From positions 1-53,785 of the forward strand of contig JAIPFQ010000003.1 in assembly GCA_021736605.1 (NCBI GenBank): a DNA stretch of 53,785 nucleotides, written 5' to 3'. The DNA comes from Spirochaetales bacterium (GTDB taxonomy: Bacteria; Spirochaetota; Spirochaetia; PWKH01). Below are positions 20,498 through 52,433 of the stretch, one piece after another. Every line of letters starts with the position of its first letter. Position 1 is the stretch's first letter. The translations under genes were made by a program, and so were the position numbers. Under the pieces are notes generated by a model that was not told where the DNA came from, ran no database searches, and saw only the letters and a list, made by a program, of their open reading frames with translations.

Positions 20498-20655
20498 TGG
20501 CTTAAAACTTAGTGATAGGCTGAAAAGTTTTACATTACTGTCCCTCAGAGAATATTTTTCACTCTAGAACAGCGTTATATCGATATAAATCTAGATTTAC
20601 TTGAATATCTTATGAGTTTTTGTCTACTTCCAAACTATCTCTAAATTTTGTGCCA
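20498..20655. repeat. 158-bp inverted-site element, copy A
   Basis: Left TGGCTTAAAACTTAGTGATAGG (20498-20519); right CTATCTCTAAATTTTGTGCCA (20635-20655). Confidence 0.8.
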
Positions 20656-20671
20656 CTGTAAAAAGAATACA

Positions 20672-20700
20672 CAGGGAGAGACTGCTCCGTCTCTCCCCTG
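20672..20700 (-). terminator. Hairpin downstream of alkaline phosphatase gene
   Basis: CAGGGAGAGAC...GTCTCTCCCCTG stem. Confidence 0.6.
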
Positions 20701-20738
20701 ATGAAATTACTTGCAGAAGGATTTTCCCGTCATCAGTT

Positions 20739-22265
20739 TTAACGACTGCTGACAGCTGAAATCGGAAAATTCATGATATCTGCAATTTTCCAAAAAATAT
20801 CGGTATTATCATAGTAGCCCTGAAAGAGTCCAGCGTTCGGACCCAATGCAAAAGTAGGAACTGGTACAGCTGTGTGGGAATAAGAAGTCCAAGCCAGACC
20901 AGCACGTTGGTTAAGGATATGGGTAACAGTTACTGTGAAGGGTTCATAGTATCCGTAAAGCAGGTACTCATTCTGGGAAGCCGGTCGTACAATCTCTCCT
21001 CCCAAACTTCTCTGCAGTGCTTCTTCCAGCTGTGCATATTCATTTTCGTTAAGATCTGTTAAACCGAAGTAGTTTTCCAATGCAGGAAGCAAATCTTCAA
21101 GTTCTGCTGAATAGACTGAATGTTCATCTTTATACGGTCCGAGCACTTCAGCATCAAAACCCTCGTAGGAAATATGCTGCTCCTGAAGCCCGGAAAATGC
21201 AGATTCGTATCCAGTTCCAGCAAAACCGAGGGTCAAACCGCCCGTTTCATGGTCCGCAGTTACCACAATAAGCGTATCTTCGGGATGCTCATTATAGAAG
21301 GATACAGCCTCCTCTACAGCATCATTGAAAGCAATGGTATCCTGAATTGCGGTTACAGCATCATTAGCATGACAGGCATGGTCAATTCTACCGCTTTCTA
21401 CCATCATGAAAAAACCATTTTCATCCTGAGAAAGCAGTTCTATACCCTTCCGCGTAAGCTCAGCTAAAGAAGGCTGTTCAGCATCATCTATATCATAATC
21501 AAGATGCGAATAAGAGAAGAGTCCCAGCACTTTTTCATCAGCCTGGGGGGTCCATTCCAGAAAACGGCGAGTATCACTTTCGCTTATAAAAGTCTCATAT
21601 CCCATATCTGCCATTTCTTCAACAAGGTCCCGACCATCTGTTCTTTTTGAAGGGAGTCCGCTGCCTGCTGAAACAAAGTGGCGATATCCGCCTCCTGCAA
21701 AATAATCAACCCCGCTGTCAGACATATCAGCAGCAATTTCATTTTCATTTCCACGGTGCTCATTATGTGCAGCAAATACTGCAGGAGTAGCATGAGTCAT
21801 TCTTGTGCTGGTAACAATACCGGTTGCCATATCTTTATCCTGAGAATACTCAACTAAATTTTTCAGCGGCTGTTTTTCCGTTCCCACCCCGATGGCATTG
21901 ATATATGTTTTATACCCCGTTGCAATTGCAGTTCCTGCAGCTGCAGATCCTGTTATGAACCGGTCAGCGGCATAAGTAGTAATCATACCCTGTGCCGGGA
22001 ATTGAGAAAAATCTGTTTTTTCAACAGGCTTTCCGAGTCGTGAACCGACATATGCCTCCGTGGCGGAAACCTGAGGCATCGCCATACCGTCACCAATAAG
22101 TAAAATCACATGTTTAACATTACTCTCAGCTGCCGCTCCTGCAACTGCCGAAACGCTTGGATCAGTCGTGGAAGATACTTCCTGTGCACCCTCTGCTGCG
22201 GCAAATCCTGCAGCGCTCAAGAGAATAAGAGCAGCTGAAAGGACTCTTTTCACACTATCTTTCAT
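20739..22265 (-). CDS. phoA: Alkaline phosphatase
   Basis: ILLIGDGM, ITGSAAAGTA (nucleophile Ser), THATPA, MVESGRIDHACH, VTADHETGG, HTAVPVP; signal peptide. Confidence 0.93.
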   Translation of the reverse strand: MKDSVKRVLSAALILLSAAGFAAAEGAQEVSSTTDPSVSAVAGAAAESNVKHVILLIGDGMAMPQVSATEAYVGSRLGKPVEKTDFSQFPAQGMITTYAADRFITGSAAAGTAIATGYKTYINAIGVGTEKQPLKNLVEYSQDKDMATGIVTSTRMTHATPAVFAAHNEHRGNENEIAADMSDSGVDYFAGGGYRHFVSAGSGLPSKRTDGRDLVEEMADMGYETFISESDTRRFLEWTPQADEKVLGLFSYSHLDYDIDDAEQPSLAELTRKGIELLSQDENGFFMMVESGRIDHACHANDAVTAIQDTIAFNDAVEEAVSFYNEHPEDTLIVVTADHETGGLTLGFAGTGYESAFSGLQEQHISYEGFDAEVLGPYKDEHSVYSAELEDLLPALENYFGLTDLNENEYAQLEEALQRSLGGEIVRPASQNEYLLYGYYEPFTVTVTHILNQRAGLAWTSYSHTAVPVPTFALGPNAGLFQGYYDNTDIFWKIADIMNFPISAVSSR

Positions 22266-22382
22266 TTTTTTCTCCTATAGAAATTAATTTTGATACTGCA
22301 GTGTGTCCTTTGCTTATGAGATTTTTATGATGTTTTTTTAATAAACTGACTAATCTTTCGTTAAGAAAATATGAGCTTTTTC

Positions 22383-22430
22383 AACCAACCACCCAACGAA
22401 CCAACCACCCAACAAACCAACCACCCAACC
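22383..22430. repeat. Tandem repeat, 3 x 16 bp (AACCAACCACCCAACN)
   Basis: Read directly from the sequence. Confidence 0.9.
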
Positions 22431-22438
22431 GCCAGCGT

Positions 22439-23596
22439 TTATGGAGTACTCAGATAGCGGTTTTTATTCTCAAGATGGTCTTCGTAGGTTCTGCCGAAAT
22501 GGATTCCGCCGTTTCGATCGTGCAGATAATACAGATAATCCGTCTCAGCAGGATATACGGCTGCCTTCAGCGCTTCATGTCCCGGACTGCCGATGGGAGT
22601 CGGCGGCAAGCCCTTTTTTCTTCGTGTATTGTAGGCAGTCTCTGCTTCAAGCTGTGCTTTCGTCAAAGGATTCGACCAGTCATCCAGCTCATACCGCGTA
22701 GAAGCATCAATACCCAAGGGCATATTTTTTTCAAGCCTGTTGTAGATAATTCCGGCAATAAACGGCATCTCTTCATGATTTGCAGTCTCTCGCTGAACCA
22801 TAGATGCAATGATAATAACTTCATTCACCGTATACGGGGAGGAACGAAGATCACTCCAATATGGAGTTAGAGCTTCTTCAAATCGATCTATCATAGCTGA
22901 AACAACCTGAACAGGAGATAGCGAGTACGGATAGAAACGATAACTGCCGGGAAAAACCAGCCCTTCGATGAAGGGATAACCTCTTTCTGCAGCAGCTTTA
23001 TCGGCCTTGGAAAGAAATTCATCCAGTGAAAGATCAGTAAAATAGGAGCTCACACGGGAATACAGCTCTTTTACAGTCATACCGGGAAAAACATGGATAT
23101 CAATAAACTGGACTTCCCCCGCAGTAAGAATATCCGCGGCTTCCCTGAAGGTTATGCCCTGAGGGAAGATATAACTGCCTGCCTGGATCCGGGTGTCAAA
23201 CCCCTTCGAAATAAGGTAGCGTTTAAATAAGAAGCGGCTGCTTATGATACCTTCCCTTTTCAACTTCCTCACCGTCACATCCACGGGCTGCCCTCTGGAA
23301 ACCGTAATCTCAACTGCCTGCTGCTGATCAGAACCTGAGACCACTCCAAGGCCGGCTCCAGCATTTCGCAAGATAAGACCTGTTCCGATTCCCAGAAAAA
23401 TTAAGCCGAAAAAGAAGATATAAAACCAAACATTCCTAAAATTCCAAATATCTCTAAATGTAAAGGATGTTTTCTTTTTCTTCTTTGGCTTCTTTTTTTT
23501 GTTTACCGGCCAATCCTCTCTATCTTTCGGTTTTTCTGTCGATTTATCCGCCGTTCTACTCGTCAGTGATTTTTTTATATTCCGAAATTTTTTCAT
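22439..23596 (-). CDS. mltG: Endolytic transglycosylase MltG
   Basis: Single TM, IEGLVFPGSY, IIASMVQRE, LGIDAS, YNTRRKKGLPPTPIGSPG, YLYYL. Confidence 0.92.
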   Translation of the reverse strand: MKKFRNIKKSLTSRTADKSTEKPKDREDWPVNKKKKPKKKKKTSFTFRDIWNFRNVWFYIFFFGLIFLGIGTGLILRNAGAGLGVVSGSDQQQAVEITVSRGQPVDVTVRKLKREGIISSRFLFKRYLISKGFDTRIQAGSYIFPQGITFREAADILTAGEVQFIDIHVFPGMTVKELYSRVSSYFTDLSLDEFLSKADKAAAERGYPFIEGLVFPGSYRFYPYSLSPVQVVSAMIDRFEEALTPYWSDLRSSPYTVNEVIIIASMVQRETANHEEMPFIAGIIYNRLEKNMPLGIDASTRYELDDWSNPLTKAQLEAETAYNTRRKKGLPPTPIGSPGHEALKAAVYPAETDYLYYLHDRNGGIHFGRTYEDHLENKNRYLSTP

Positions 23597-24671: not shown

Positions 24672-24718
24672 CCTCATCTCCTTTTGCAACCATTGTATCA
24701 TACCACATTACCCTTTCC

Positions 24719-24747
24719 TTGACAAAGAAACAGTCTGTTTATATTCT
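24719..24747 (+). promoter_or_regulatory. Sigma70-type promoter
   Basis: TTGACA (24719)-N17-TATTCT (24742). The ORF-track TTG start lies inside this -35 box. Confidence 0.65.
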
Positions 24748-24778
24748 AATAAAAACAGACAATTGTGGAAAAACAGTA

Positions 24779-26524: not shown

Positions 26525-26529
26525 TTTCA

Positions 26530-27198: not shown

Positions 27199-27233
27199 TA
27201 CTGCTTCAGAACTAGCGAACTTGAATTACAGCC

Positions 27234-27279
27234 TCACCAGCTGATTTATAAAACTGATTCATAAAACATCAGCTGGTGA
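27234..27279. terminator. Hairpin between convergent genes
   Basis: TCACCAGCTGAT / ATCAGCTGGTGA, 12-bp perfect stem. Confidence 0.55.
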
Positions 27280-27383
27280 AGAGCTTAATTAACTGCACAG
27301 CTTCATAAGCCCGCAGTTTCACATTCTGAACCCTGCCTGTTTCAGTTTTCAGTTCACATGAGCATGAGTACTCAATAATTAAT

Positions 27384-27755: not shown

Positions 27756-27818
27756 CCCCTAGATTGTAACCACTTTACGCGGTTGGATGTTACATAATAT
27801 AATTTACTTAATTTGTCA

Positions 27819-27858: not shown

Positions 27859-27901
27859 AAAAGCTGAAACATTCCATAGAATTTTTTTGTTTCATACATG
27901 C

Positions 27902-27999
27902 GGGCACAAATTTTAGTGATACCTTCGCGATTATCCCTTTAACGCTGATTAAGGGCTTTCCAAATCGGGAGAATGCAATTGTCACTAAAATTCATGCCG
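27902..27999. repeat. Inverted-site element, copy B (98 bp)
   Basis: Left GGGCACAAATTTTAGTGATAC; right TGTCACTAAAATTCATGCCG. Confidence 0.7.
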
Positions 28000-28049
28000 G
28001 TAAATGTGTTATAAATATAAGCTATTTCCCGTACTGGACTAATCATGAA

Positions 28050-28078: not shown

Positions 28079-28125
28079 GCGGTAAGCTATGTATTCATGT
28101 AAACATACAGCCTGCAGGAGGAATT

Positions 28126-29028: not shown

Positions 29029-29031
29029 AAT

Positions 29032-35558: not shown

Positions 35559-35627
35559 ACCTGCCAAACAACCTGCCAAACAACCTGCCAAACAACCTGC
35601 CAAACGACCTATTTAACGACCTACCAA
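35559..35627. repeat. Tandem repeat, 4 x 12 bp (ACCTGCCAAACA) plus two degenerate units
   Basis: Read directly from the sequence. Confidence 0.9.
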
Positions 35628-35677
35628 TTCCCAAAAAAAGGTAAAAAAACTATATGATTGTTAAGTATCATATAAAT

Positions 35678-39068: not shown

Positions 39069-39313
39069 ATTTCAGCCTCCTTCAAGCTTCAAGGAAAGAA
39101 CTCTACTGCCTGATAGGCTCCGTAAGATACAAAGACCGCGCAGAATACAAAGACCTCGCAAGTTCCAATAGTCCGCAAGGTCCATAGTTTTTGCAATTTC
39201 AAGCAATATAAATCCATGTAACATCTTAGGCGGCGCTATTACTTCTTCGCCCTAATTACCCACTGTATTTCAGGACCTATTCCTGCCCTATTCCTGCCAG
39301 TGTGCCTAAAACC

Positions 39314-40038: not shown

Positions 40039-41022
40039 TCACCAGCGCAAATGCACATCTTCTTTTACATACTGCGCATAGATATCATCGATTTTATGCA
40101 TAAGCGCATCTGAAAAGGGCGGAAAATCCGCTGCCTTGATATTATCCTCCGCCTGAGAAGGCCTTTTTGCTCCCGGAATCACCGTAGAAACCTCGTCAAA
40201 CATCAGAATCCACCGCAGAGCAAACTGAGCCATGGTCATTCCCTTCGGAACAAGAGCTCTGAGCTCCTCCACAGCTTCCAGCCCCTTTTCAAAACGAACA
40301 CCGGCAAAGGTCTCTCCACGATCGAATGCTGAACCATCGCGATTGAAATTCCTATGATCATCCTCCGGGAATTTTGAATCCTTCGTCATTTTACCAGTCA
40401 GCAGCCCGCTTGCCAGGGGAACTCTTATGATGATGCCTACGTCCCGTTTTTTCGCTTCCTGAAAAAAGAGCTCCCTCGGCCGCTGGCGAAATATGTTAAA
40501 GATTATCTGCACTGTACTGACATTAGGAAATTCGATGGCCTTCATGGCCTCTTCAACCTTTTCAACGCTTACGCCGTAATTTTTCAGAATACCCTCTTCC
40601 ACCATTTCATCAAGGCCAGTAAAGAGATCCGGATTGTAATACACATCCGTCGGCGGGCAGTGCAGCTGCAGAAGATCAAGGCTGTCAGTCTGAAGATTCT
40701 TTAAACTCTCCATAACAAATCCGCGGATATTTTCGGGAGTATACTTATCGGCTCTATGGGGTTTTAATTTTCTCCCCGCTTTTGTTGCAATGATTAAACC
40801 CTCTCTGCGCCGCTTATTGAGGTCAGCCAGAAAGCGTTCGCTCCGACCGTTTCCGTAGGCATCAGCAGTATCAAAAAAACTGACTCCGCCCTCCACCGCA
40901 GCTTCCAGCGCCGCCGAAGCATCCTCATCGCTTACGTCCCCCCAGCCTGCGCCGATTGCCCAGGTTCCAAAACCGATTTCCGAGACATACATGCCTGTTT
41001 TGCCTAATTTCCTGTAGTTCAT
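40039..41022 (-). CDS. Aldo/keto reductase
   Basis: VSEIGFGTW, FDTADAYG, IATKAG, DLLQLH, PLASGLLTGK, VIPGA. Confidence 0.95.
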   Translation of the reverse strand: MNYRKLGKTGMYVSEIGFGTWAIGAGWGDVSDEDASAALEAAVEGGVSFFDTADAYGNGRSERFLADLNKRRREGLIIATKAGRKLKPHRADKYTPENIRGFVMESLKNLQTDSLDLLQLHCPPTDVYYNPDLFTGLDEMVEEGILKNYGVSVEKVEEAMKAIEFPNVSTVQIIFNIFRQRPRELFFQEAKKRDVGIIIRVPLASGLLTGKMTKDSKFPEDDHRNFNRDGSAFDRGETFAGVRFEKGLEAVEELRALVPKGMTMAQFALRWILMFDEVSTVIPGAKRPSQAEDNIKAADFPPFSDALMHKIDDIYAQYVKEDVHLRW

Positions 41023-41279
41023 AAATTGCCTTCCCCTGTTTATTCCTAAATTGTATAATAAAACTTATTGTTAAGAATACATTCAAAGATCATTCAAAGC
41101 TGCTTATCCATTTAAAACAGTATAACGTATTCTCTCCCAGTACACAAATCTCAATAAAGAGAAATGCGGAAAATCAGCTCGGCTATGTTTCCTCCCCATT
41201 GTAGTCTTGAGCAGTTTTTCTGATCGTTGAACATGATGCTCCTTGTCTAAATGACCTATTCTGATTACCCTTTATACAC

Positions 41280-41448
41280 TGGCATAAAATTTTGTGATGA
41301 GTTTTTCGGGGGGATGCAGAATACATCTTACTGAAATCTTTGAAGCAAATTATTTGATTTAGAAAAACGAGAGGCTGCGCTTACGCTGCAATACTCCCTG
41401 GCTAGTGAAAAAATGAGCCGGACTGGGGTAACAACAAGCTTTGAGCCA
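41280..41448. repeat. Inverted-site element, copy K (169 bp)
   Basis: Left TGGCATAAAATTTTGTGATGAG; right GGTAACAACAAGCTTTGAGCCA. Confidence 0.65.
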
Positions 41449-41517
41449 GCGTACAACGTAGACATAAGGCCCCCAACGCGCAGCAGTATGCCCGTATTCA
41501 AACGATAGGAGAAGATC

Positions 41518-42897
41518 ATGCCGATATTTGTTAACCGTTCCCTCAACCTCAAAAAAATCAAACTCATCGGATTTGATATGGACTACACCCTTGTACCCTA
41601 CGAAACTGAAGCTTTCGAAGAGCTGACCTATACTCTGGCAAAAGAACGGCTCATCGAAGTTCTATCGTACCCCAAGGAGCTGAATCAGTACTCCTTCGAT
41701 TTCAACAGGGCTATCGTCGGCCTGGTGATAGACAAGCGCAACGGCTACCTTCTCCAGCTGAGCAGGTACAATAAAGTAAAAATTTCCTACTACGGCCTGG
41801 AGCGGGTACCCTACCGAGAGCAGAACCGCGTCTATCAGAACATGGCCATTGAACTCCGGGATCCTGATTTCCAAAGTCTTGATACAGCTTTCGCCATCTC
41901 CTACGGCGTCCTTTTTTCCCAAGCGGTGGAACTGAAAAAGCAGGGATACTCCCTTCCTTCATATCAGAAGCTGGAAAAGGATATCCATGAGGCAATCGAT
42001 ATGGTGCATCGTGACGGCTCGCTCAAATCGGAGATCAAGAAGAACTTTAAAAAATATGTAATTCTGGATCCCAGGACAGCCCAGGTTCTTGAGAGATACA
42101 AGGATTACGGCAAGAAGCTGATGATTATCACCAACTCTGATTTCTCCTATACCCAAGCCCTGCTGAATTATGCCATTGATCCGTTTCTGAAGAAACATAA
42201 GAGCTGGAAGGATGTATTTGACATGGTCATCACTTTTGCGGACAAACCGAAATTTTTCGAACATCCCGCCCGCTTCCTGAAAATAGACCCAGCCACCGGG
42301 CTCATGTCAAATCATGAGGGACCTGTGACATCAGGAATATACCAAGGGGGAAATTCAAAAAAACTTCAGCATGACATGCGTCTTCAGGGAAGTGAAATCC
42401 TTTACATCGGGGATCACATCTACGGTGACGTAGTATCCATCAAAAAGCTCTGCAACTGGCGAACAGCTCTGGTTCTGGGAGACTTGGAACGCGAGATGGA
42501 CGGAATCAGACGCTCAAAAGAGGTGCAGCAGGAGATCGATCGGCTCATGCATGAAAAAGACATTCTGGAACGGGAACTGAATCAGATCGATATACAGAAA
42601 TATGAAGGGAAAAAGGTAAAGCATCAAGTGATAGATGAACTGTTTCAGAGAATCGACAGCCTCAACACGCGAATATCTTCCCTCCTGGATGACTACATGC
42701 AGTTCTTCAACCCGTACTGGGGAGAAATCCTCCGAGCCGGTGCCGAGGAGAGCCGCTATGCGGAACAGATAGAGAAGTACGCCTGCATCTACATGACCCG
42801 AGTCTCAGACCTTTATGAATATTCACCGCGGACCTATTTCCGCCCGATCAAACGCATCATGCCCCACGAACTTGCGGTGATGGGAAAGAATTCATAA
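41518..42897 (+). CDS. HAD-IG 5'-nucleotidase (cN-II/NT5C2-like)
   Basis: IGFDMDYTL (HAD motif I), IITNS, KPKFF, YIGDHIYGDV, YACIYMTRV. Confidence 0.92.
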   Translation: MPIFVNRSLNLKKIKLIGFDMDYTLVPYETEAFEELTYTLAKERLIEVLSYPKELNQYSFDFNRAIVGLVIDKRNGYLLQLSRYNKVKISYYGLERVPYREQNRVYQNMAIELRDPDFQSLDTAFAISYGVLFSQAVELKKQGYSLPSYQKLEKDIHEAIDMVHRDGSLKSEIKKNFKKYVILDPRTAQVLERYKDYGKKLMIITNSDFSYTQALLNYAIDPFLKKHKSWKDVFDMVITFADKPKFFEHPARFLKIDPATGLMSNHEGPVTSGIYQGGNSKKLQHDMRLQGSEILYIGDHIYGDVVSIKKLCNWRTALVLGDLEREMDGIRRSKEVQQEIDRLMHEKDILERELNQIDIQKYEGKKVKHQVIDELFQRIDSLNTRISSLLDDYMQFFNPYWGEILRAGAEESRYAEQIEKYACIYMTRVSDLYEYSPRTYFRPIKRIMPHELAVMGKNS

Positions 42898-42998
42898 TTC
42901 CGATCATTTTTAAAATTGAGATCCAGCGGGTTTTGTGATTCTGATAACTGACGAATCAGAACAGTTAGTCAGAACAGCCAGGTATACATCCACTCAGA

Positions 42999-44549
42999 TC
43001 AGAACAGCCAGGAAAGCTTTTTTACCAGTCTCGGCGGAAGCTGCTCCCGGAGCTGCACTTTTTCTTCCTTCCGGATATACAGCATCCACCCGAGAACCAG
43101 ATAGAGCAGCCCTGTCCCGATACCCACTGCCGCCAGTACCATAATATTCCAGGACTCCAAAGCGATAAATCGCGAAGCCGCATAGAGGATCGCAGCCGTG
43201 GGGACTACAGGATAGAGAATCGCGAGATATACCTGTTTGATGAATTTCCAGACCTGCACTTCCGTATAGGCGGTCATCGCCGGGAGGTAGACAAATAGGC
43301 CGAATAGAACGTTCGGAATCAGCGTTCCCAAAGCTACGCCGACCGCCCCGTATTTTCGAACCAGCGCAATGCTGATGCCTAAGTTCAGGAGACTCTCCAC
43401 CGCCGTAGCAATAGAAATCAAGCGATGGCGCCCGCCCATCTGCAGGATCTTCTTCGCGTTCTTCTCCATCAGAATAGCAACAAACATGGACGTAAGCATC
43501 ACATAACACGTCATGATGGTTTTAGGATTTGTATGATCCAGCCACACATAAAGGATCTGCGGCCCCAGCAGCATGAACTCAATATACATGATGGAACCGA
43601 CAAAGATGCCGAAACGAAAACTGGCGAAGACGATATTATTGAGGCGTGCTTTTTCCCCTGAATAATGCAGGGAAGCTGCAATGGAGGAGATGCTGCCCGA
43701 AAACCCGGAAGATAGTATTCGCATGATATCCGGCAGTCGCGTTCCAATTTGATAAATGGCGATGGAACTGGTTCCTACAAAGATTCCAAGCACGAGCCGG
43801 TCGGCATTATAGGTAATAAGCTCAGCTAAAGTAACAACATAAGCAAACAGGCTGAATTCTGATATCTCCTTGATGTTCCTCCAGGTAAAATGTTTCAACT
43901 GAATCCTGAATCTCGGTATTTTTTTCTTTACATACAGATACATGACGACTTGGACCAGAAAATTGAGTCCGTTGACAAAAACTGCCAGCTCAAGCAGGCT
44001 CCCCCCCAGCTGAAATATCAGCCAGATCCCAAAGATCCTGATGATAATTGAGCCCGATACAACGATATTATCTATGTCATACCGTCGGATGCCTCCGACG
44101 ATTTCTGAGAAGATCCCCATAGGGAAAACGAGGCCATTCCCCAGGGCAAATACGAAAAAGGCAGTCTTGTAGTAGCCGATCTGCTCCCTCGGTTCCAGGA
44201 TAAAAATCCGATCCAGAATGGGGGTCAGCGCACCTGCTGCTCCTACGATCACCAGCATTGTGAGGAGATAAAAGACAAAAACGGTTGAAACAATACGATT
44301 GAGTTTTTCATAATCCCCGGAAATGTGGACTTCGGCGGTATACTTCTGCACCGTTACGCCTACGCCGAAATCCAGAATAAGGGCATACATGAAAACATTC
44401 CAGAGCAGAGACCAGAAACCGTAAAAATCCGGGCCTAATCCTTTCAGCAGCATTCTTGTCACAAAAATGGCGGAGACCATGTTGATAATTACGTAGAGGT
44501 AGTTTGATGCTATATTTTTGACAATTTGCTTTCCTAACGTGTTGTCCAC
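42999..44549 (-). CDS. MOP-superfamily oligosaccharide flippase (Wzx-like)
   Basis: Multi-pass hydrophobic protein; LGPDFYG, DFGVG, DRLVLG, NLGISIALVRKYGAVGVALGT; GTG start. Confidence 0.85.
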   Translation of the reverse strand: MDNTLGKQIVKNIASNYLYVIINMVSAIFVTRMLLKGLGPDFYGFWSLLWNVFMYALILDFGVGVTVQKYTAEVHISGDYEKLNRIVSTVFVFYLLTMLVIVGAAGALTPILDRIFILEPREQIGYYKTAFFVFALGNGLVFPMGIFSEIVGGIRRYDIDNIVVSGSIIIRIFGIWLIFQLGGSLLELAVFVNGLNFLVQVVMYLYVKKKIPRFRIQLKHFTWRNIKEISEFSLFAYVVTLAELITYNADRLVLGIFVGTSSIAIYQIGTRLPDIMRILSSGFSGSISSIAASLHYSGEKARLNNIVFASFRFGIFVGSIMYIEFMLLGPQILYVWLDHTNPKTIMTCYVMLTSMFVAILMEKNAKKILQMGGRHRLISIATAVESLLNLGISIALVRKYGAVGVALGTLIPNVLFGLFVYLPAMTAYTEVQVWKFIKQVYLAILYPVVPTAAILYAASRFIALESWNIMVLAAVGIGTGLLYLVLGWMLYIRKEEKVQLREQLPPRLVKKLSWLF

Positions 44550-44613
44550 ATTTCCCCTCCGGAGCTCTTATCCTTATGGTATCCTAAATACGATGAAATT
44601 ACCACAGAAAGTT

Positions 44614-44751
44614 CAGCCTATCACTAAGCTTAATGCCAGCTATTAAAGCCCCCCAGCCCCCCGGAGCCCCAGCCCCCCGGAGCCTAGGAACCCTAGAGCC
44701 CCCAGAGAAATTCACCTTTACACCTTTACAGCTTTACAGCAATCTGCTCAG
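44614..44751. repeat. Duplicated segment (repeat half-site C + GC-rich spacer + 3' remnant of thioredoxin-like gene)
   Basis: Homologous to 46643-46754. Begins CAGCCTATCACTAAGCTT and ends with minus-strand codons for EQIAVKL*. Confidence 0.75.
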
Positions 44752-45081
44752 ATTCCTGCTTCTTTTATGCCATATCGATATCCATCTGGTTCAGAAGTTT
44801 CCCACAGGGTTCAGAATCGAAGAAAAGCTTATGTTTGAACCACTTTACCTCCCCACATCCACATTCACTACCATTCACATCAATTCATTTTCAGGGGATA
44901 CTTGATGATCTGGAATTGATTGAGCGTTTTGAGGAACCGGGCAAAAAGCAAAAAAGCTAAGAATAGGAGAAACAACTGGAAAACTGAAAATTCTCTAAAC
45001 TGCCTTGGGAATTTCTATACCTGCCTGAACTTTGGTAAAATTTTTCGGGTATTCAGGATGCATCTCGTTCTTTTTTTCATC

Positions 45082-45792
45082 CTATTGCTTACTCAATCGT
45101 TTATTGCCTATAGTTATTTTTAGTGCGTCAAATTCACTTACAATATAGGTGAGCAATGCATAAAGAAATACTGCAGCACCAAGCATTTCAAGAAATTCTT
45201 CACAAGTATACAAAATTGATGATAAGAGGATCTTATTATTTCCGGGTGTTACAGCTTGTTTACTACCAAGCATTTCAAAGCCAATTGCGCCGGAAACAAA
45301 GATGAAACCTGATAAAATAAATAAACCCATAATTTTTTTTGGCAGATTTAGTAAAAATTTTGAGTACATTACAATAAAAATAATCAACGCAGCACCATAA
45401 GGTATTACCCACGCATAGTATAGAAAGCCTGAAGTTTCGAAAACGTTTCTAGTGCGGGGAGTTAACCTCTCATGAATCATTGCTATTTCATCAATCGATA
45501 AGAACAGAAAGAGTAAAGACAGCCCAAGCCAAGGAATATAAGAGGACTTAATTTTTTTATTACAAATTGCTGTGATATACAGCAAAGCACTGCAAACAAT
45601 AAGCATAATTGATGAGAAAAGAGTCGGAATACTTTTTTCTTCGTTAAAATCAAATAAAGGAGTAAGACCATAAATAGTATCTTGATCAAAATATAACTTT
45701 AACACTATTCCAATTGAATTTACGAACAGCAGCAGAAAAATAAGAGCAATGTGCATATTAAATATTTTTTTTGGAGATATTTCTAAGATCAT
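45082..45792 (-). CDS. Hypothetical multi-pass membrane protein (AT-rich)
   Basis: ~6 TM segments; motifs EKSIPTLFS, SIDE...HE, EEFLEMLG. Visibly more AT-rich than its neighbours. Confidence 0.85.
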   Translation of the reverse strand: MILEISPKKIFNMHIALIFLLLFVNSIGIVLKLYFDQDTIYGLTPLFDFNEEKSIPTLFSSIMLIVCSALLYITAICNKKIKSSYIPWLGLSLLFLFLSIDEIAMIHERLTPRTRNVFETSGFLYYAWVIPYGAALIIFIVMYSKFLLNLPKKIMGLFILSGFIFVSGAIGFEMLGSKQAVTPGNNKILLSSILYTCEEFLEMLGAAVFLYALLTYIVSEFDALKITIGNKRLSKQ

Positions 45793-46111
45793 GTAACGCC
45801 TCTCATTTTTTTTCGTTTCAACCCAGCCGCTCAGGTTACTGTTCAGGCTGATTTTTCTTGTTGGATATAATCAGATTGGAAATCACTTTCTCCATTTCAT
45901 CTGGCTTGGCAGCAAGAAAAAGATATCAATACGGCATGACTGATGCTGTCGTTAATAATCCCTTCAAAATACAGGCTTTACTTTTCAATATTACCTGCAG
46001 CGCTGCTGTTAGATGCTGATCCATCATCCCTTTCATTTCTGAGCAGAAAGCTTCCAGCCAACTTTTCATCTCCTTAATTAGCAGAGATTCAGCCGAGGCT
46101 GAATTGTTCTG

Positions 46112-46153
46112 CTTTTGTGCCTACTCTGTTCACTTTTGTGCCTACTCTGTTCA
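46112..46153. repeat. Tandem duplication, 2 x 21 bp (CTTTTGTGCCTACTCTGTTCA)
   Basis: Read directly from the sequence. Confidence 0.9.
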
Positions 46154-46645
46154 AAAATCCTGAAATGGTCAATACTTTTTCAGACAACTAATTAAACACA
46201 TTATGTTTTCCTGGATTTTTCCCAGATGTACAAATATTCTAAACTAGACTGTATGACTGAGTCCAGCTTGGAAGCTTTAAAAAACTGCAATTATACGAGA
46301 ATTGCCAATCCCGATGTTCCCCCTGGCCGCTATCATCAATCATAATGGAGAGATCTCTAGAGATCATAGCCTAATACCTTCCCACTATAGAAAAGAAAGA
46401 ACCCTTGGTTTCATACAACACCCTATATGCGTAAATATTTTATGTTCTCTGCAATCTGATCCCAAGCCAGTCAGCCTATATCTATGTCGGCTTGGACATC
46501 TGCAGGAAATCCTTAGAGAATCAGAAGATTTTAAGGAAGCCCCATCAGAGGTCCTTTTGAATGAGTTATAAATGAATTTTCATCTCTCTGCCTTTTTGGA
46601 GCTTGAATAATGAAGGATAATCTACTCAGACTCTACTGGAAACAG

Positions 46646-46667
46646 CCTATCACTAAGCTTTACCATC
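46646..46667. repeat. Repeat half-site D (truncated)
   Basis: CCTATCACTAAGCTTTACCA. Confidence 0.7.
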
Positions 46668-46728
46668 TAATAAATATCCCAGAGCCCCTAGAGCCCTAGA
46701 GCTCCGGGGCCCCCTGAGAAATAAACCT

Positions 46729-46956
46729 TTACAGTTTTGCTGCAATCTGCTCAGGTTTCAGCACCTTGCCGGTACTTACCACCTGCTCATCTATTACTAG
46801 TGCCGGTGTTGAAATAACATTATAGGACATGATATCATTCATTTCCGTAACTTTTTCGATGTCCGCCGCAGCTCCGGTACTTTTTAAGGCCTTCTCAACA
46901 TTTTCGTACAGCTTTCTGCACTTTGGGCATCCGCCCCCGAGAATTTTAATAGTCAT
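46729..46956 (-). CDS. Small thioredoxin-like redox-active disulfide protein (MTH895/ArsE type)
   Basis: MTIKILGGGCPKC...YNVISTPALVIDE; start re-called at 46956. Confidence 0.92.
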   Translation of the reverse strand: MTIKILGGGCPKCRKLYENVEKALKSTGAAADIEKVTEMNDIMSYNVISTPALVIDEQVVSTGKVLKPEQIAAKL

Positions 46957-46984
46957 ATACGCTCTCCTAGTGTCTTTTTTACGC

Positions 46985-47142
46985 TGGCACAAAACTTAGA
47001 GTTAAACTTAATCTTAATAAATCCAGCCCTCCCCAAGCAGAAATTTTTCCTGCATCGGCTGCTTACAGCCTGAAATACAAGTTAAACACAGCAGAGGACC
47101 TGAATTTTTCTGCTGGAAAATCCATCACCAAGTTTTGGGTCA
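46985..47142. repeat. 158-bp inverted-site element, copy E
   Basis: Left TGGCACAAAACTTAGAGTT; right CCATCACCAAGTTTTGGGTCA. Confidence 0.75.
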
Positions 47143-47210
47143 GCATTTATGTTAATCAGACGATTTTTTAGCCTGAATCATACAAATCAACAAACTTCAC
47201 CGCTAAGGCA

Positions 47211-48230
47211 TCAGAATAGTGCATTAAAAATCCAGCCGGCCGAAGTGAACATGACCAGAAGAAGAAAGAAAAAGAAAACCAGCAGCCGTGACTTCATAAC
47301 CTGCTTCAAAAGAACAAATTCCGGAAAACTTGCTGCAACAGTACTCATCATCAGCGCAAGGGTCGTTCCCACAGGCAGCCCCTTCAGAAGCAGGCTCTCC
47401 GCCACCGGGATGATACCCGTCGCATTAGAGTACAAAGGAATCCCTAAAAGTACTGCGGCGGGCACTGACCACCACTGACCATCACCCAGGGTATCAGTGA
47501 TAAACTCTTCGGGAACGAACCCATGGAGCATGGCTCCGGCCCCTACCCCGATGAGGACCCACTTCCAAATTCGACCGAAAATCGTACTAACTTCATCCTT
47601 TGCGAACAGGTGGCGCTCTTTCAAACTTAGATGGCGCGTTTTTTTACTGCCCGCCGCTTCGGCATCATCAGTATTTGCATCCGTGTTTGCACCTTTTTGT
47701 TCTTCTTCGGACATACCCTTTGCCTGAAGGCCAAGATCGGTTAGATAGCGATCAGCCTTCAACGCATCTATGATTAAGCCGCCCAGTATTCCGGCGGACA
47801 GACCGGTTATGATGTAGACAAGGGTAAAATTTATGCCGAGCAGTCCGCCCAGCAGGGCGATGGCAACTTCGTTGATCATGGGAGATGTGATGAGAAAAGC
47901 CATGGTGATTCCCAGGGGGATGCCTGCTGAGGTGAAGCCCAGAAAGAGCGGGATGCTTGAACAGGAACAGAACGGGGTAACTGCTCCGAAGAGAACGGCA
48001 ATTACATAGCCCGCCGACCGGGACTTACCTTGGAGATAGGCCCTTACGCGTTCTGTATTCAGCCCTGCTCTCAGGACGGCAATGAGGTATATCATGACCA
48101 CAACCAGGGCATATATTTTTGTCACATCTTCTATGAAGAAATGGAGACTTTCGGCTGCCCGGCTTCCTTTCTCCATGGAAAAGAGATCATATACGACTGC
48201 ATCTGCAAGCAGGGTGAAGATTCTAAACAT
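47211..48230 (-). CDS. arsP: ArsP/DUF318-family permease
   Basis: TPFCSCSSIP, FLITSPMINE, GIPLYSN, SFPE; start re-called at MFRIF. Confidence 0.85.
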   Translation of the reverse strand: MFRIFTLLADAVVYDLFSMEKGSRAAESLHFFIEDVTKIYALVVVMIYLIAVLRAGLNTERVRAYLQGKSRSAGYVIAVLFGAVTPFCSCSSIPLFLGFTSAGIPLGITMAFLITSPMINEVAIALLGGLLGINFTLVYIITGLSAGILGGLIIDALKADRYLTDLGLQAKGMSEEEQKGANTDANTDDAEAAGSKKTRHLSLKERHLFAKDEVSTIFGRIWKWVLIGVGAGAMLHGFVPEEFITDTLGDGQWWSVPAAVLLGIPLYSNATGIIPVAESLLLKGLPVGTTLALMMSTVAASFPEFVLLKQVMKSRLLVFFFFLLLVMFTSAGWIFNALF

Positions 48231-48258
48231 AGGGTTTCCCTTATTAGCTGGTATTAGC

Positions 48259-48280
48259 TGGCTCAAAGCTTAGTGAGAGG
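48259..48280. repeat. Repeat half-site F
   Basis: TGGCTCAAAGCTTAGTGAGAGG; possible degenerate partner at 48395-48416. Confidence 0.75.
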
Positions 48281-48355
48281 ATCAACAGTGATATAAAACC
48301 GCAAATCAATTATATAATCGTTTTTCTGATGTCCAAATTTCTGCAGGAAGTAAAA

Positions 48356-48787
48356 CTAAACAGAAGGAGACAGGTTGTCCGGCATCCCTGAAACAAAATC
48401 ACGAATTTTGTCTCGAACCTCTCTATAGCAATTCAGTTTCTCCTCTTCGCCTTCTAGTTCGGCTGCCATCCTCGGCGGGTCCTGAAATCCGACATGAACC
48501 ACTTTTCCGCCGCCAGGGAAATAGGGGCAGTTTTCGTATGCGTCATCACAGACAGTCACAATATAATCAAACTTCTCCTTAAGGTACTCTGAGACATGTT
48601 GAGAGACTTGATGAGAAATATCGACTCCAGCTTCTTTCATTACTTTTACAGCATGGGGATTGAGCCCATGCGTTTCTATACCTGCGGAATAGGCTTCTAT
48701 CTCCTCTCCTTTCAGAGATCGCGTCCACCCTTCAGCCATCTGGCTGCGGCAGGAATTTCCTGTGCACAAGAACAATATTTTTAACAC
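48356..48787 (-). CDS. arsC: Arsenate reductase (thioredoxin-coupled, LMW-PTP fold)
   Basis: FLCTGNSCRSQMAEG, VTVCDDAYENCPYF, FQDP; GTG start. Confidence 0.95.
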   Translation of the reverse strand: MLKILFLCTGNSCRSQMAEGWTRSLKGEEIEAYSAGIETHGLNPHAVKVMKEAGVDISHQVSQHVSEYLKEKFDYIVTVCDDAYENCPYFPGGGKVVHVGFQDPPRMAAELEGEEEKLNCYREVRDKIRDFVSGMPDNLSPSV

Positions 48788-48932
48788 CGTTCACTCCTTA
48801 CATTACGCTGTTTGCAAAACTCACAAATCGGCAGAAAGCTCAACTTTTGTCGTTTTTCCAGCTGCTTGACTCAGATAGAAATCTTTCTATTGATTTTTTT
48901 TCTGCCTATAAGTAAGATAGTGATTAAATCAA

Positions 48933-48981
48933 TATATTTCTATATATACCGAAATATAGAATTAAAAAGAATAAATGTCAA
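48933..48981 (-). promoter_or_regulatory. arsC operon promoter with overlapping ArsR-type inverted repeat
   Basis: Minus strand TTGACA-N17-TATATT; inverted repeat TATATTTC-N10-GAAATATA (48933-48958) overlaps the -10 box. Confidence 0.7.
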
Positions 48982-48995
48982 TGTTAAATATATAG

Positions 48996-49153
48996 TGGCA
49001 TAAAGCTTTTTGGTATGAATTTTTGCTTAGTTTTTTTCCTGACAAAGAATTTTTTCGATTTTCAAACGCTGTTTTGGAGCCTGGAATGGTGTTTTATAAA
49101 AAAGCTGCACAAACAGGAATATAGTAAAAGTCCTATCACCAAGTTTTGAGCCG
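48996..49153. repeat. 158-bp inverted-site element, copy G
   Basis: Left TGGCATAAAGCTTTTTGGTATG; right CCTATCACCAAGTTTTGAGCCG. Confidence 0.78.
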
Positions 49154-49167
49154 CCCTGGAGATGACC

Positions 49168-49533
49168 ATGAAAGAAGCCTTAGAAATCCTTAAAGCCCTG
49201 AGCGATGAAAACCGGATGAGAATTTATCTCATGCTCCAACAGAAGCCTATGTGCGCATGCGAACTTCTCTCCGTTCTTGACATAGCCGGTTCGACTCTCT
49301 CTGCTCACTTAAAGATTCTACGCAATGCGAACCTCATAGAACAGAAAAAAGAAGGCCGCTGGATCGAGTACGGAATAAAAATTTCTCAGTTGAATAAAAA
49401 ATTGGAAGCATTTCTCTTGGAAACCCTTATAGCAGATCCTCAAATTATTCAGCAGGATAGAAAAGAAGCCCAAGCACTTGACCGTCTCAGCTGCTCACAG
49501 CAGAAACAAACTGAAGAAAAAAACCTTCACTAA
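49168..49533 (+). CDS. arsR: ArsR/SmtB-family regulator
   Basis: KALSDENRMRI, metal site MCACEL, STLSAHLKIL, KEGRWIEY; divergent from arsC. Confidence 0.9.
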   Translation: MKEALEILKALSDENRMRIYLMLQQKPMCACELLSVLDIAGSTLSAHLKILRNANLIEQKKEGRWIEYGIKISQLNKKLEAFLLETLIADPQIIQQDRKEAQALDRLSCSQQKQTEEKNLH

Positions 49534-49544
49534 ATTTTTTGCCA
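49524..49544. repeat. Repeat half-site H, containing the arsR stop codon
   Basis: CCTTCACTAAATTTTTTGCCA; TAA at 49531-49533. Confidence 0.65.
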
Positions 49545-49585
49545 GCGCATAGGAACAAATTACAGTATGCGACTGACCCCCCCCA

Positions 49586-50350
49586 TTAAATCAGGTAGAA
49601 GGCAAAGGACAAGTAAAAACTCAAACTTCCTGCAATTACAAACAAGTGCCAAATCACATGACTCAATGGTACTTTTTTGGTAAGGTAAAAAATGATTCCC
49701 ACAGAATAGGAGAAGCCTCCAATAAACATCCACACAATAAATCCTGTAGGAGTATAGTGAAACAGCGGTTTCAGAAAAAAGATAAGCAGCCACCCCATGG
49801 GCAGATAGAGCAGATCAGAGAGATAATGCTTTTGCCGATAGATAACTGTTTTCAGGATTGTTCCCATTAAGGCCAGTGCCCAGATAATGCCGAACATCCA
49901 CCATCTCCAAGGATTGGGAATGGCTATCAAAGCTACAGGGGTATAGGTTCCGGCTATCAGAAAATAGATAGCCACCTGATCAAAAACACGGGCAATATTA
50001 AATACTTTGGGAACATCCTTAAATTGATGGGTAATGGTAGATGAAAAATATAATACTATTTGAAATGCCCCATAAACTGAAAATGCTGCGTATTGAACAG
50101 CTGTTCCGTTTTTCAGGTATGTAAGTATCAGCAGAAACACTAAACCGGCTATACTCAAGCCGGCGCCGACGCTGTGGGTTACGGCATTCAATCGCTCTTC
50201 AAGATTATGCTCAACTCCTGAATCCTGTAATTTCTTTGTATCAAGTCTACCAGCTTTTTCCTCGTTTGAGATATCTCCAATTGTATCCGATTTGTTCGGT
50301 TGATTCAGGATATCTGATGATTCTTCAAGTTCTCCATTATTACTTGCCAT
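49586..50350 (-). CDS. Hemolysin III / PAQR-family membrane protein
   Basis: EERLNAVTH, SSTITH, FDQVAIYFLIAGTYTP, SHVIWHLFV. Confidence 0.93.
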   Translation of the reverse strand: MASNNGELEESSDILNQPNKSDTIGDISNEEKAGRLDTKKLQDSGVEHNLEERLNAVTHSVGAGLSIAGLVFLLILTYLKNGTAVQYAAFSVYGAFQIVLYFSSTITHQFKDVPKVFNIARVFDQVAIYFLIAGTYTPVALIAIPNPWRWWMFGIIWALALMGTILKTVIYRQKHYLSDLLYLPMGWLLIFFLKPLFHYTPTGFIVWMFIGGFSYSVGIIFYLTKKVPLSHVIWHLFVIAGSLSFYLSFAFYLI

Positions 50351-50461
50351 TATGTCTGCTGCCTCCGTACACTGCTCTTCAATTAAATTTTCTCAATAGA
50401 CGAAAGTATAATACGATTCGTTCAGCAGGAATACAATAGTTAATATGTACTATTTCATTGC

Positions 50462-50619
50462 TGGCTCAAAAATTTGTGAAAAGGCAGTTAACTTCTTTCT
50501 CAAATTCAGCTGACGTCTTATTCCACTTTTCATCCAATAATGTGCAGTTTTAAAAGTGAATACTATGCAGCATTAGAAAAAGATCTCATGAAATTGGGCC
50601 ATCCCAATGATTTGTGCCA
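50462..50619. repeat. 158-bp inverted-site element, copy I
   Basis: Left TGGCTCAAAAATTTGTGAAAAG; right CCATCCCAATGATTTGTGCCA. Confidence 0.72.
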
Positions 50620-50655
50620 CGGTTTATGCTAAGATAGCTTAACAGGAGGTGTTCT

Positions 50656-51246
50656 ATGAAAATTCTTGGAATAAGCGGAAGCCCGAGGAAAGCGGGAAAC
50701 ACCGGATCAATCATATCATCCATGTTGAAAGGTGCTGAACAAGCAGGAGCTGAAACAGAATACATCCAGCTGTACTCTCATCATATCCAAGGATGTATTG
50801 GCTGTGAAAAGTGCCGAAGAGATAAAACCTGCACGCAGTTTTTGGACGGTATGCACCTGCTTTACCCGAAAATTGAAGCGGCAGAAGGGATTATTTTGGG
50901 TTCCCCCACATACAATTACAACGTGACCCCCTGGATGAAGGCCTTTATTGACCGGCTCTATCCTTTTTTCAACTTCAGTAAAGAGCGTCCGGGACCCTAC
51001 AGCTCTCGACTTGCAGAAAAAGGCAAGCGAGCATTGGTATTCGGAGTCTGCGAACAAATCGATCCGAAAGAAATGGGGTACACCATCGTCTCCATGCGAG
51101 ACTCGATTGAAGCCCTCGGCTATACTATTCATGATGAAATGGCATTTACCGCACACTTTTTTGCAAATTCCATCAAAAAAGACAGCAAGGAAAAAAACAG
51201 GGCTGAAATTGCCGGAGTAAAATTCGTCGAATCACTGCAGGAGTAA
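50656..51246 (+). CDS. Flavodoxin-fold iron-sulfur flavoprotein
   Basis: SGSPRKAGNT, CIGCEKCRRDKTC, LGSPTYN, KAFIDR. Confidence 0.9.
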   Translation: MKILGISGSPRKAGNTGSIISSMLKGAEQAGAETEYIQLYSHHIQGCIGCEKCRRDKTCTQFLDGMHLLYPKIEAAEGIILGSPTYNYNVTPWMKAFIDRLYPFFNFSKERPGPYSSRLAEKGKRALVFGVCEQIDPKEMGYTIVSMRDSIEALGYTIHDEMAFTAHFFANSIKKDSKEKNRAEIAGVKFVESLQE

Positions 51247-51247
51247 A

Positions 51248-52258
51248 ATGAAAACACTGAAACCAGTTGATATATGCAGAATCACTGTCATTGTTGATAA
51301 CTACGCGGATACACTGCTTGAATCAAGCCCGGGAGTCGAGCGTTTTCCTTCTGTTCAGGGAAATTCTCTAGCAGCAGACACACTCCTGGCAGAGCATGGA
51401 ATCAGCCTTCTGGTAGAAACCAAAAGCGGAAAAAAATGGCATTCCGTCATTTTCGATGCCGGTTACAGCCCCATAGCCGCCCCGAGAAATTACAAGATGC
51501 TCGGCTTACCGGAACACTTGAAGCATGCGCCTCCGGAAGCACTAGTTATCAGCCATGGACATGAAGACCATGTGGGCGCTCTAGATGAAATGATGACGCT
51601 TACGGGAAATCCTTTGCTGGTGATCCACCCGGAGGCATTTACCTCTCCGCGCTTCTGGAAGGCGGATGACGGCAGACTCTACCGAATCCCCGTCAAAATT
51701 GATCGCGGAGAGATCAACAGCAAGCTGAAATCCCGGGGATCAGCTTTACGGGAGAGTGCCTCCCCGCTGTATCTCGGAGACAATACGATACTCGTGACTG
51801 GGGAAATCCCCAGGGTCACATCATATGAAAGAGGGATGCCGGGTTCCGTTAAAGGAGCAGCCCAACAATCAGGGAAAGATGAAAGCGCTGAAGACAATCA
51901 GGAACTGATCCCCGACCAGATACTCGACGATCAGGCTCTTGTTGTTGATGTCAAAGACCGCGGACTCGTTGTGATTACCGGCTGCGGCCATGCTGGAATC
52001 ATCAACACCACTCTTTATGCGAAAACACTTACTGGAATTGATCAGATTGAGGGAGTGGCTGGAGGCTTCCATTTATCAGGAAAAGAATTCAGCGAAATCG
52101 TCATCAGAACCGCAGAGGATCTCCATCAAATGAATCCACATCGAGTAATACCGATGCACTGCACAGGATTAATGGCAAAAGAGGTCTTGAAAAACCAGTT
52201 CAAAGAACGTTATGTTGAAAGTTCAGTTGGAACAGTGCTTGCTTTCCCGTTCCAGTAA
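51248..52258 (+). CDS. MBL-fold metallo-hydrolase (DHPS-like/MJ0448 type)
   Basis: IVDN, AEHGISL, FDAG, ISHGHEDH, TGEIPR, DDQAL, TGCGHAG, GGFHL, PMHCTG. Confidence 0.9.
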   Translation: MKTLKPVDICRITVIVDNYADTLLESSPGVERFPSVQGNSLAADTLLAEHGISLLVETKSGKKWHSVIFDAGYSPIAAPRNYKMLGLPEHLKHAPPEALVISHGHEDHVGALDEMMTLTGNPLLVIHPEAFTSPRFWKADDGRLYRIPVKIDRGEINSKLKSRGSALRESASPLYLGDNTILVTGEIPRVTSYERGMPGSVKGAAQQSGKDESAEDNQELIPDQILDDQALVVDVKDRGLVVITGCGHAGIINTTLYAKTLTGIDQIEGVAGGFHLSGKEFSEIVIRTAEDLHQMNPHRVIPMHCTGLMAKEVLKNQFKERYVESSVGTVLAFPFQ

Positions 52259-52276
52259 GTTTTACTTTTTTTTTAC

Positions 52277-52433
52277 TGGCTTAAAAATTAGTGATTAGCT
52301 GATTTTTTTACAAAGCAGTAACTTTGTTGGAACTTTTTTATCTGGAACAGTACTGTGACGGTTTAAATCCAAGGGAAAAGGACAACTCTTAAGAAATTGT
52401 TCATTGAATACTCAATCACTAATTTTTAAGCCA
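52277..52433. repeat. 157-bp inverted-site element, copy J
   Basis: Perfect 20-bp inverted repeat TGGCTTAAAAATTAGTGATT / AATCACTAATTTTTAAGCCA. Confidence 0.88.

Follow-up and report, generated by a model that had tools for sequence, protein, structure and literature searches.

Small doublet repeats with conserved ends, set lengths, and drifting interiors in an uncultured Spirochaetales bacterium

The stretch of DNA analyzed here (the window; 53,785 nucleotides) is contig JAIPFQ010000003.1, or C110, of a Spirochaetales genome assembly (GCA_021736605.1, hereafter G000) that comprises 1.94 Mb in 150 contigs and is 55% complete. It carries 7 pairs of a conserved site that face each other across short spacers, along with 4 sites that stand alone, and members of the same family are dispersed over the rest of the assembly. 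We consider it probable, at roughly 60%, that these site pairs are the terminal inverted repeats of an old, lineage-specific, small, non-coding, and non-autonomous element that once multiplied as a doublet and that resembles miniature transposable elements with inverted repeats (MITEs) and REP doublets forming hairpins (REPINs, built from repetitive extragenic palindromic, or REP, sequences).

Site pairs recur across the genome at a few sharp distances

A preliminary description of the window had listed 18 half-sites of a shared motif. A position matrix, built from genome-wide matches that had been seeded with a regular expression, recovers all of these as 7 pairs and 4 lone sites, with one start corrected from 49524 to 49523 and the site at 46646 found to be only half a site. 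The spans given for the pairs (158, 158, 158, 158, 157, 169, and 98 bp) are correct. The motif is strongly enriched over chance: in its first IUPAC form, with up to 3 mismatches, it matches the window 9 times versus 0.00 expected from 100 shuffles, and the matrix gives 241 strand-hits of at least 14 bits in the whole assembly versus 10 in locally shuffled DNA. Merging the strands leaves 193 distinct sites, 121 of which score on both strands. Those of at least 16 bits (n = 136) were classed as strong and the remaining 57 as weak. Gene calls were based on open reading frames (ORFs) and cover 88% of the DNA; 117 of the 136 strong sites lie outside the predicted genes. Among the weak sites, 40 of 57 lie inside genes, where they are probably chance matches.

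Where neighboring sites are less than 300 bp apart, 41 of the 50 pairs face inward, and the center-to-center distances of the inward pairs fall into sharp classes. The main ones are 76–79 bp (13 pairs), 137–139 bp (13 pairs), and 157–162 bp (7 pairs), and minor ones were found at 44, 54, 68, 88 (2 pairs), 149, and 172–173 bp (2 pairs). Not a single inward pair occurs genome-wide at 89–136, 140–148, or 150–156 bp. The spacing peak that had been anticipated across the genome is thus present, but in the form of at least 3 main classes rather than one. Whole elements measure about 110, 170, or 195 bp, and no third site was found inside the long ones. From the predominance of inward pairs and the sharpness of the classes, the doublet, consisting of an end, a spacer, and an end, is the unit of this family. 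Strong sites without a partner number 57 of 136, and a count by eye indicated that about 9 of 40 lone sites of at least 18 bits are full palindromes made of two outer halves.

The gaps that host pairs are tandem (17), divergent (16), or convergent (4), and 2 further pairs lie at contig edges. Looking outward from the sites, the neighboring gene end is a start 72 times and a stop 42 times, a mild excess for which longer gaps with promoters can account. In fifteen cases, a paired arm ends 2–36 nt ahead of a start codon; transcription of the genes concerned must then either begin within the element or pass through it.

Interiors are homologous and run in either orientation

The interiors of the elements had been described as unrelated, and they do look so when every copy is read left to right, as ungapped identity is then 0.30–0.34 versus 0.28 in shuffles. 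The best local alignments between interiors, however, fall between opposite orientations. When interiors of the same length class were compared in either orientation against shuffled controls (maximum 0.554), 31 of 178 comparisons exceeded the control maximum and 60 of 178 the 95th percentile of the controls. At least one same-class relative above all controls was found for 26 of 37 elements. Interior identity ranges from 47% to 75%, the highest value being reached by the best two element pairs. The printed alignments are colinear across the whole element, with likeness gone just outside the arms, near position -17, and elements of the 160 class can be aligned with those of the 138 class. In addition, the words ATGGCT, GGCTTT, and CAGGCT are enriched 4–6-fold in the interiors.

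The interiors had therefore looked unrelated because all copies were read left to right. As they are homologous in either orientation, the pairs are copies of one family, and not independent sites around unrelated DNA; the alignments indicate one old family that has split into lineages. The earlier statement that neither a MITE nor a REP unit fits well is not supported, since homology over the whole element, at up to 75% identity and ending at the arms, is the signature of a copied element. The colinear relatives make the alternative that had been offered as a fallback, an old non-autonomous element, the better reading. The orientation of the interiors shows no link to gene context.

Arms and interiors differ in how far their likeness extends. 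Between elements whose interiors are at the random baseline (0.47), arm identity is still 0.66; it is 0.75 in the 11 pairs whose interiors are most alike (0.66). The latter values imply that sister copies decayed about equally in their arms and inside. Together, arms shared between distant lineages and even decay between sisters are as expected from a birth-and-death process in which the ends are constrained only while the element multiplies. The preliminary description had proposed that geometry rather than interior sequence is under selection; ends and length are indeed kept far better than the interior, but the fixed geometry would most simply reflect a requirement of a mobilizing enzyme.

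Anatomy of the end site

A logo of 114 oriented sites of at least 18 bits shows a conserved arm of about 28–30 positions, which reads TATACGS, TGGCAY, AAAGCTT, and WGTGATRG from its outer to its inner end. Its center is a 14-bp dyad, CACAAAG/CTTTGTG, in which CAC and GTG are 11 bp apart. The outer and inner thirds differ, so the site has a direction. Conservation reaches about 7 bases outward past the 22-bp motif first described, which had missed both these outer bases and the dyad core. Each end is a predicted protein-recognition site of about 28–30 bp.

Covariation between paired arms was clear at one position only (W at +3), and there was no sign of compensatory change between the two arms. 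Folding of 8 window arms as single-stranded DNA yielded no single-arm hairpin (8 of 8 at 0 to -2.6 kcal/mol, z of +1.13 to -1.27), and none of the 8 paired through the dyad core.

Elements and lone sites in the window

The leftmost element (20491-20662) belongs to the 138 class, as counted from center to center. Its arms lie at 20498-20519 (plus strand, 25.7 bits) and 20634-20655 (minus strand, 24.5 bits), with about 7 nt of conserved outer flank beyond each, and its neighbors are the start of a YibE/F-like gene on one side and, on the other, the stop of an alkaline phosphatase gene. It is followed by an element of the 78 class at 27895-28006, with arms at 27902-27923 (plus, 21.3 bits) and 27978-27999 (minus, 16.4 bits). 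The element at 41273-41455, upstream of a 5'-nucleotidase gene, is the sole one with a center distance of 149; its arms are at 41280-41301 (plus, 25.8 bits) and 41427-41448 (minus, 20.2 bits).

Two lone sites on the minus strand come next. The one at 44617-44638 has the full motif (28.0 bits), is adjoined by a C-rich repeat, and marks on the left where a 2.07-kb stretch begins that two related strains lack in their contigs. The other, at 46646-46667 (7.3 bits), is half-decayed, as its inner half and center match the motif and its outer half does not. The stretch itself (44649-46715) contains an ORF for 236 amino acids without a Pfam match and two short ORFs, and in the contigs of the related strains (runs X5 and X10), 17–22 other letters stand in its place. 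Diverged direct copies bound it, each made up of the lone site, the C-rich repeat, and a thioredoxin-like gene's 3' end. The C-rich repeats are odd, short repeats (units like CCCCAG, CCCCCCGGAG, and CCCTAGAG) at 44639-44700 and 46668-46710, directly outside the two lone sites. On the minus strand, one of them has the score of a terminator-like hairpin (46700-46678), and runs of C also follow other arms, for example, ahead of the start codons at 41518 and 52453.

An arsenic-resistance-type (ars-type) cluster (46729-49533) has minus-strand genes for a Thioredoxin_3 protein, an ArsP_1 permease, and an LMWPc phosphatase and a plus-strand gene for an ArsR-type HTH_5 regulator, and each of its gaps holds a repeat element or a lone site. 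Between the thioredoxin-like gene and the permease gene is an element of the 138 class (46978-47149; arms at 46985-47006, plus, 21.5 bits, and 47121-47142, minus, 19.1 bits), and between the permease and the arsC-like phosphatase genes is a lone end site (48259-48280, plus, 24.3 bits). The arsC-like and arsR-like genes diverge, and the gap that separates them contains another element of the 138 class (48989-49160; arms at 48996-49017, plus, 20.3 bits, and 49132-49153, minus, 25.7 bits), with a strong promoter-like site just outside the left arm at 48996. A lone end site at 49523-49544 (minus, 20.4 bits) overlaps the stop of the arsR-like gene.

Two further elements of the 138 class lie to the right of the cluster. 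The first (50455-50626; arms at 50462-50483, plus, 19.3 bits, and 50598-50619, minus, 20.4 bits) is found between a HlyIII-family gene and an FMN-reductase gene. The second (52270-52440; arms at 52277-52298, plus, 18.0 bits, and 52412-52433, minus, 19.2 bits), with a distance of 137, separates a metallo-beta-lactamase-fold gene from a phosphotransferase gene. Its arms are identical over their first 20 bases, so the perfect 20-bp inverted repeat reported for 52277-52433 is confirmed.

Distribution and comparison of strains

The family appears to be restricted to this lineage. With up to 2 mismatches, the motif gives 27 hits in G000 and none in the 4 genomes that belong to its family, and 1–3 hits were found in 6 of 400 other genomes of the class, versus 0–1 for a reversed control. 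When metagenome contigs were scanned with the HlyIII-family neighbor protein, 80 loci were obtained (best identity 62%), none of which had the motif above chance. A scan of viral contigs returned 3 contigs with one exact motif match each. The three matches in genome G129 were rejected as a different repeat. This genome has its own intergenic repeat with GTGGCAC and GTGCCAC words, present in three copies on one contig (C43:1-2450, locus L100), which resembles the outer third of the arm only. A scan of G000 with a universal 16S primer did not find a 16S gene.

Contigs from lake-water, subsurface, brine, and lagoon sequencing runs align to the window; the comparison of related strains used contigs only, and contigs drop rare forms. 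A strain from the brine run, about 94% alike, is colinear over 46004-50234 and 50294-53547 and so carries the elements. In other contigs, the flanking genes align but three stretches into which elements of the window fall (47080-47172, 48983-49149, and 50456-50604) do not, a difference that counts in favor of the mobile-element reading. A search for empty sites with the YibE/F query gave no match in the same-family genomes, and the 5'-nucleotidase orthologs in these genomes (62–70% identity) have other neighbors, so that no comparison of that locus was possible. The related strains also differ from the window at 39093-39313, where 221 bp are replaced by 138 other letters, and at 35560-35642, after a tRNA-Arg gene, where 73–83 bp are replaced by 23–25 letters; neither place has a repeat site.

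Searches for target duplications and a partner enzyme

Several results weigh against the view that these pairs are the ends of a mobile element. No excess of exact direct repeats of 2–5 bp or inexact ones of 8–9 bp was found at boundary offsets of 9–25, which bears out the earlier remark that a consistent target-site duplication is missing, as none appeared at any boundary offset. A decayed 2-bp TA duplication could hide in the conserved TATA flank. The assembly, which is 55% complete, yielded neither a partner transposase nor a full-length insertion sequence (IS) bearing these ends; as 45% of the genome is missing, and repeats often stay unassembled in such genomes, this failure is no evidence that the enzyme is absent. 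No protein family has more than 2 copies in the assembly. The closest pair of copies is only 75% identical in its interior, and recent movement is therefore not shown. In the related strains that differ at the elements, the letters between several joints are not readable, and the stretches may be either clean empty sites or replaced DNA. Lastly, the arms within one element are hardly closer to each other than those of different elements (identity 0.609 versus 0.591, p = 0.045), which means that arms are held to a common motif and not to each other. This near-equality also fits independent host selection on each site.

A search of the 55%-complete assembly with PF01797 returned one IS200-type Y1 gene, whose hairpins are its own and of a different kind, along with a single broken fragment; the motif flanks neither of them. 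The IS200-type transposase gene (C70:11870-15226, locus L009) is an ORF for 132 amino acids with one TGA inside the Pfam match and its own flanking palindromes. An IS30-like ORF for 349 amino acids and a small two-gene module adjoin it.

A multi-copy IS at the right end of the window was considered as the partner and rejected, a further point against mobility. A long repeat of at least 3 copies ends in a motif-like arm on contigs C33 and C148, and a fragment of it makes up the final 250 bp of the window. Copies were found at 53534-53785 of the window and at C93:12904-13202, C33:1-379, C148:1-214, and C31:35093-35266 of G000; the G+C fraction is 0.54–0.60 versus 0.45 for the genome, and the depth is 706 versus about 190 in run X3. 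The repeat encodes the C-terminus of a transposase of about 375 amino acids with a zinc finger and a helix-turn-helix, the catalytic part of which has no Pfam match, while NCBIfam gives only weak N-terminal matches to IS1 and ISL3. This transposase family is widespread: of 201 genomes of the class, 52 have members of it, with up to 10 matches in one. The ends of the family (e.g., TAGTGTCCCAAACCGTGGGGAT) differ in sequence at 4 of 6 loci in other genomes, where they directly follow the gene, and for this reason the IS was not taken as the partner. Moreover, the motif-like arm is about 230 nt beyond the probable IS end, as judged by eye, and the subterminal DNA of the IS is barely like the element interiors (best score 16 versus a control maximum of 14).

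Alternative explanations

The arms might instead be host-owned or domesticated binding sites, at which a dimeric protein bridges two arms into a loop or wrap and thereby insulates or organizes intergenic DNA, with host selection keeping the arms and their spacing. The dyad core with its CAC and GTG 11 bp apart would suit such a role, as would arms that behave like independent draws from one motif and that retain an identity of 0.66 where interiors are random. The excess of gene starts (72 versus 42), the share of pairs in divergent gaps (16 of 37, compared with 25% of the gaps of at least 150 nt), and the 57 strong sites that stand alone point the same way. The nine length classes also show some phase coherence, with R reaching 0.71 at 10.5 bp (p about 0.03, with 10–11.5 bp scanned), in keeping with the earlier suggestion that the spacings follow helical turns. 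This argument is weak, however, as R is 0.85 at 11.75 bp and the signal is thus no better at the helical repeat. The homology of the interiors tells against host-owned sites, since it means that the pairs arose by copying and not site by site. Elements also sit in 4 convergent gaps and within operons, arms and interiors decay alike in sister copies, and no candidate protein was identified. On balance, we regard host-owned sites as unlikely. The narrower proposal that the arms have ceased to be, or never were, transposon ends alone and are operator-like, with a lineage-specific dimeric protein bridging two of them at helically permitted distances and the host keeping ends and spacing, strikes us as somewhat more doubtful still. 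If paired binding of this kind were true, some 80 or more intergenic regions per genome would be small fixed loops, insulating or shaping the nucleoid.

Recombination at the sites offers two other explanations, both of which we consider very improbable. In one, a site-specific recombinase would flip the DNA between the arms (an inverton) and so switch neighboring genes. Inverted site pairs around short segments near gene starts, interiors in either orientation relative to their flanks, and an 11-6-11 arm layout that by eye resembles a recombinase core site are all compatible with this, and the assembly encodes three tyrosine recombinases, all phage-type, of which two have a site about 1 kb away or closer. 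Inverton recombination requires identical crossover cores, but the two central arm positions agree in only 59% and 41% of pairs. Furthermore, none of the 15 listed joints (of 33) in the contigs of the four runs, from which rare forms drop out, shows a change of strand, interior orientation is unlinked to gene context, and 57 of the 136 strong sites lack a partner. In the other, the sites would be crossover points for swapped modules, i.e., boundaries of exchangeable cassettes that are attC-like or dif-module-like. A toxin-antitoxin-like two-gene insert on contig C43 of G000 is flanked by a direct repeat containing the left arm, the 2.07-kb stretch absent from two related strains lies between same-strand sites (44617 and 46646), and in the region from 44.6 to 53.5 kb of the window, short genes of accessory type are accompanied by 5 pairs and 4 lone sites. 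The 2.07-kb difference, however, ends in the C-rich repeats beside the sites and not in the sites, and the copies flanking it share more than 100 bp of diverged likeness that includes a gene end, as after a duplication. Integron attC sites have conserved 7-bp core sites at both outer ends and depend on an integron integrase; the outer ends of the arms, TATACGS-TGGCA, have no integron-type core, no integron-type integrase was seen among the recombinases of the assembly, and the phage-type ones lie beside other genes. Most elements, too, are single among ordinary genes. The insert on C43 (C43:426-1274) is 803 bp long and has two minus-strand ORFs (80 and 91 amino acids) that look antitoxin-toxin-like by eye; its exact 46-bp direct repeat consists of the left arm plus 24 nt of element interior.

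Least probable of all is that the elements form a family of structured RNAs of small size, or of genes for small proteins, whose ends are conserved. Their fixed lengths and conserved ends would agree with this, as would the many copies in probable 5' leaders, 2–36 nt ahead of start codons. Whole elements also fold well (z of +1.5 to -7.0, most below -2), but they do so only through arm-to-arm pairing; taken by themselves, interiors of either strand show no better folding than dinucleotide shuffles (mean z of -0.16 to -0.39). Rfam 15 gave only a tRNA in the window at the gathering score, and nothing at E up to 1 in 40900-53785, so that no element is covered by a match. The longest open frames barely exceed those of shuffles (36.0/33.6, 49.5/41.2, and 53.9/48.5 amino acids), and simple scans found neither promoter-like nor terminator-like sites inside the window elements.

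Discussion

The closest parallels to this family are found among known small repeats of bacteria. REPINs are REP doublets mobilized by RAYT transposases, and they are described as having sharp doublet distances of 71 and 110 bp, a spacer less conserved than the ends, of which the “critical features appear to be length”, and REP singlets as defunct remnants (Bertels and Rainey 2011, PMC3116915). The family described here is alike in forming extragenic inverted doublets at few sharp distances (here 78, 138, and 160 bp), in having a less conserved spacer whose length matters, in having singlets that count as remnants, in showing no target duplication, and in being lineage-specific. Unlike in REPINs, the arms are not hairpins, the spacer is not self-complementary, and there is no compensatory arm change; moreover, the copies are much more diverged, and a RAYT gene was not found in the assembled 55% of the genome.

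Bacterial MITEs, such as the Correia elements of Neisseria, ERIC, RUP, and bcr1, are small, non-coding, dispersed elements derived from an IS with a DDE transposase, with terminal inverted repeats of 20–30 bp. The present family shares with them the terminal inverted repeats that bound a short element, the dispersed homologous copies in numbers of tens to hundreds, the narrow size classes that differ by an internal block, and the intergenic location, including places within operons and near start codons. Like REP, ERIC, and Correia-type elements, it sits in all kinds of gaps and between operon genes. In those families the interiors remain similar and a target duplication is present (TA in the case of Correia), whereas the interiors here are 47–75% identical and no duplication was detectable. 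We know of no cognate IS for this element. Non-autonomous elements of the Tn3 type have 38-bp ends and make 5-bp duplications; the family resembles them in being defined essentially by its terminal repeats, and differs in having neither such ends nor such duplications. Enterobacterial bacterial interspersed mosaic elements (BIMEs) are mosaics of inverted palindromic units with linkers of set length, bound by gyrase and IHF. The units of BIMEs are hairpins rich in G+C, with linkers of conserved sequence, whereas the arms described here do not fold and the linkers vary. The element would thus work like a MITE or a REPIN; membership in either group is not established, given the lack of a duplication, an arm hairpin, and a partner gene.

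We propose that a trans-acting enzyme, a transposase not seen in the assembly, would bind both ends and join them across the short, stiff spacer. New copies would then arise solely from copies with intact ends at a permitted distance, such that ends and length would be filtered at every jump and the spacer could drift freely. After its last jump, a copy would decay as a whole, and the lone sites may be remnants or half-decayed copies. Past mobility of this kind, with selection acting on the element itself, would account for conserved ends around diverged interiors, and Bertels and Rainey (PMC3116915) arrived at an equivalent view of REPINs. The fixed geometry hence has an ordinary explanation: this is a known kind of element, and neither a new class of system nor a new regulatory architecture.

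An uncultured bacterium of lakes and brines thus has its own doublet-type family of small repeats, of which half a genome shows about 40 doublets and some 57 lone sites. Being located in promoters, leaders, and operon gaps, the family can alter expression and break assemblies. It also provides a clean natural example of elements in which ends and length are kept while the spacer drifts. As this REPIN-like pattern occurs here with ends that are not hairpins, it suggests that two-end synapsis can impose the pattern without single-strand hairpin chemistry.

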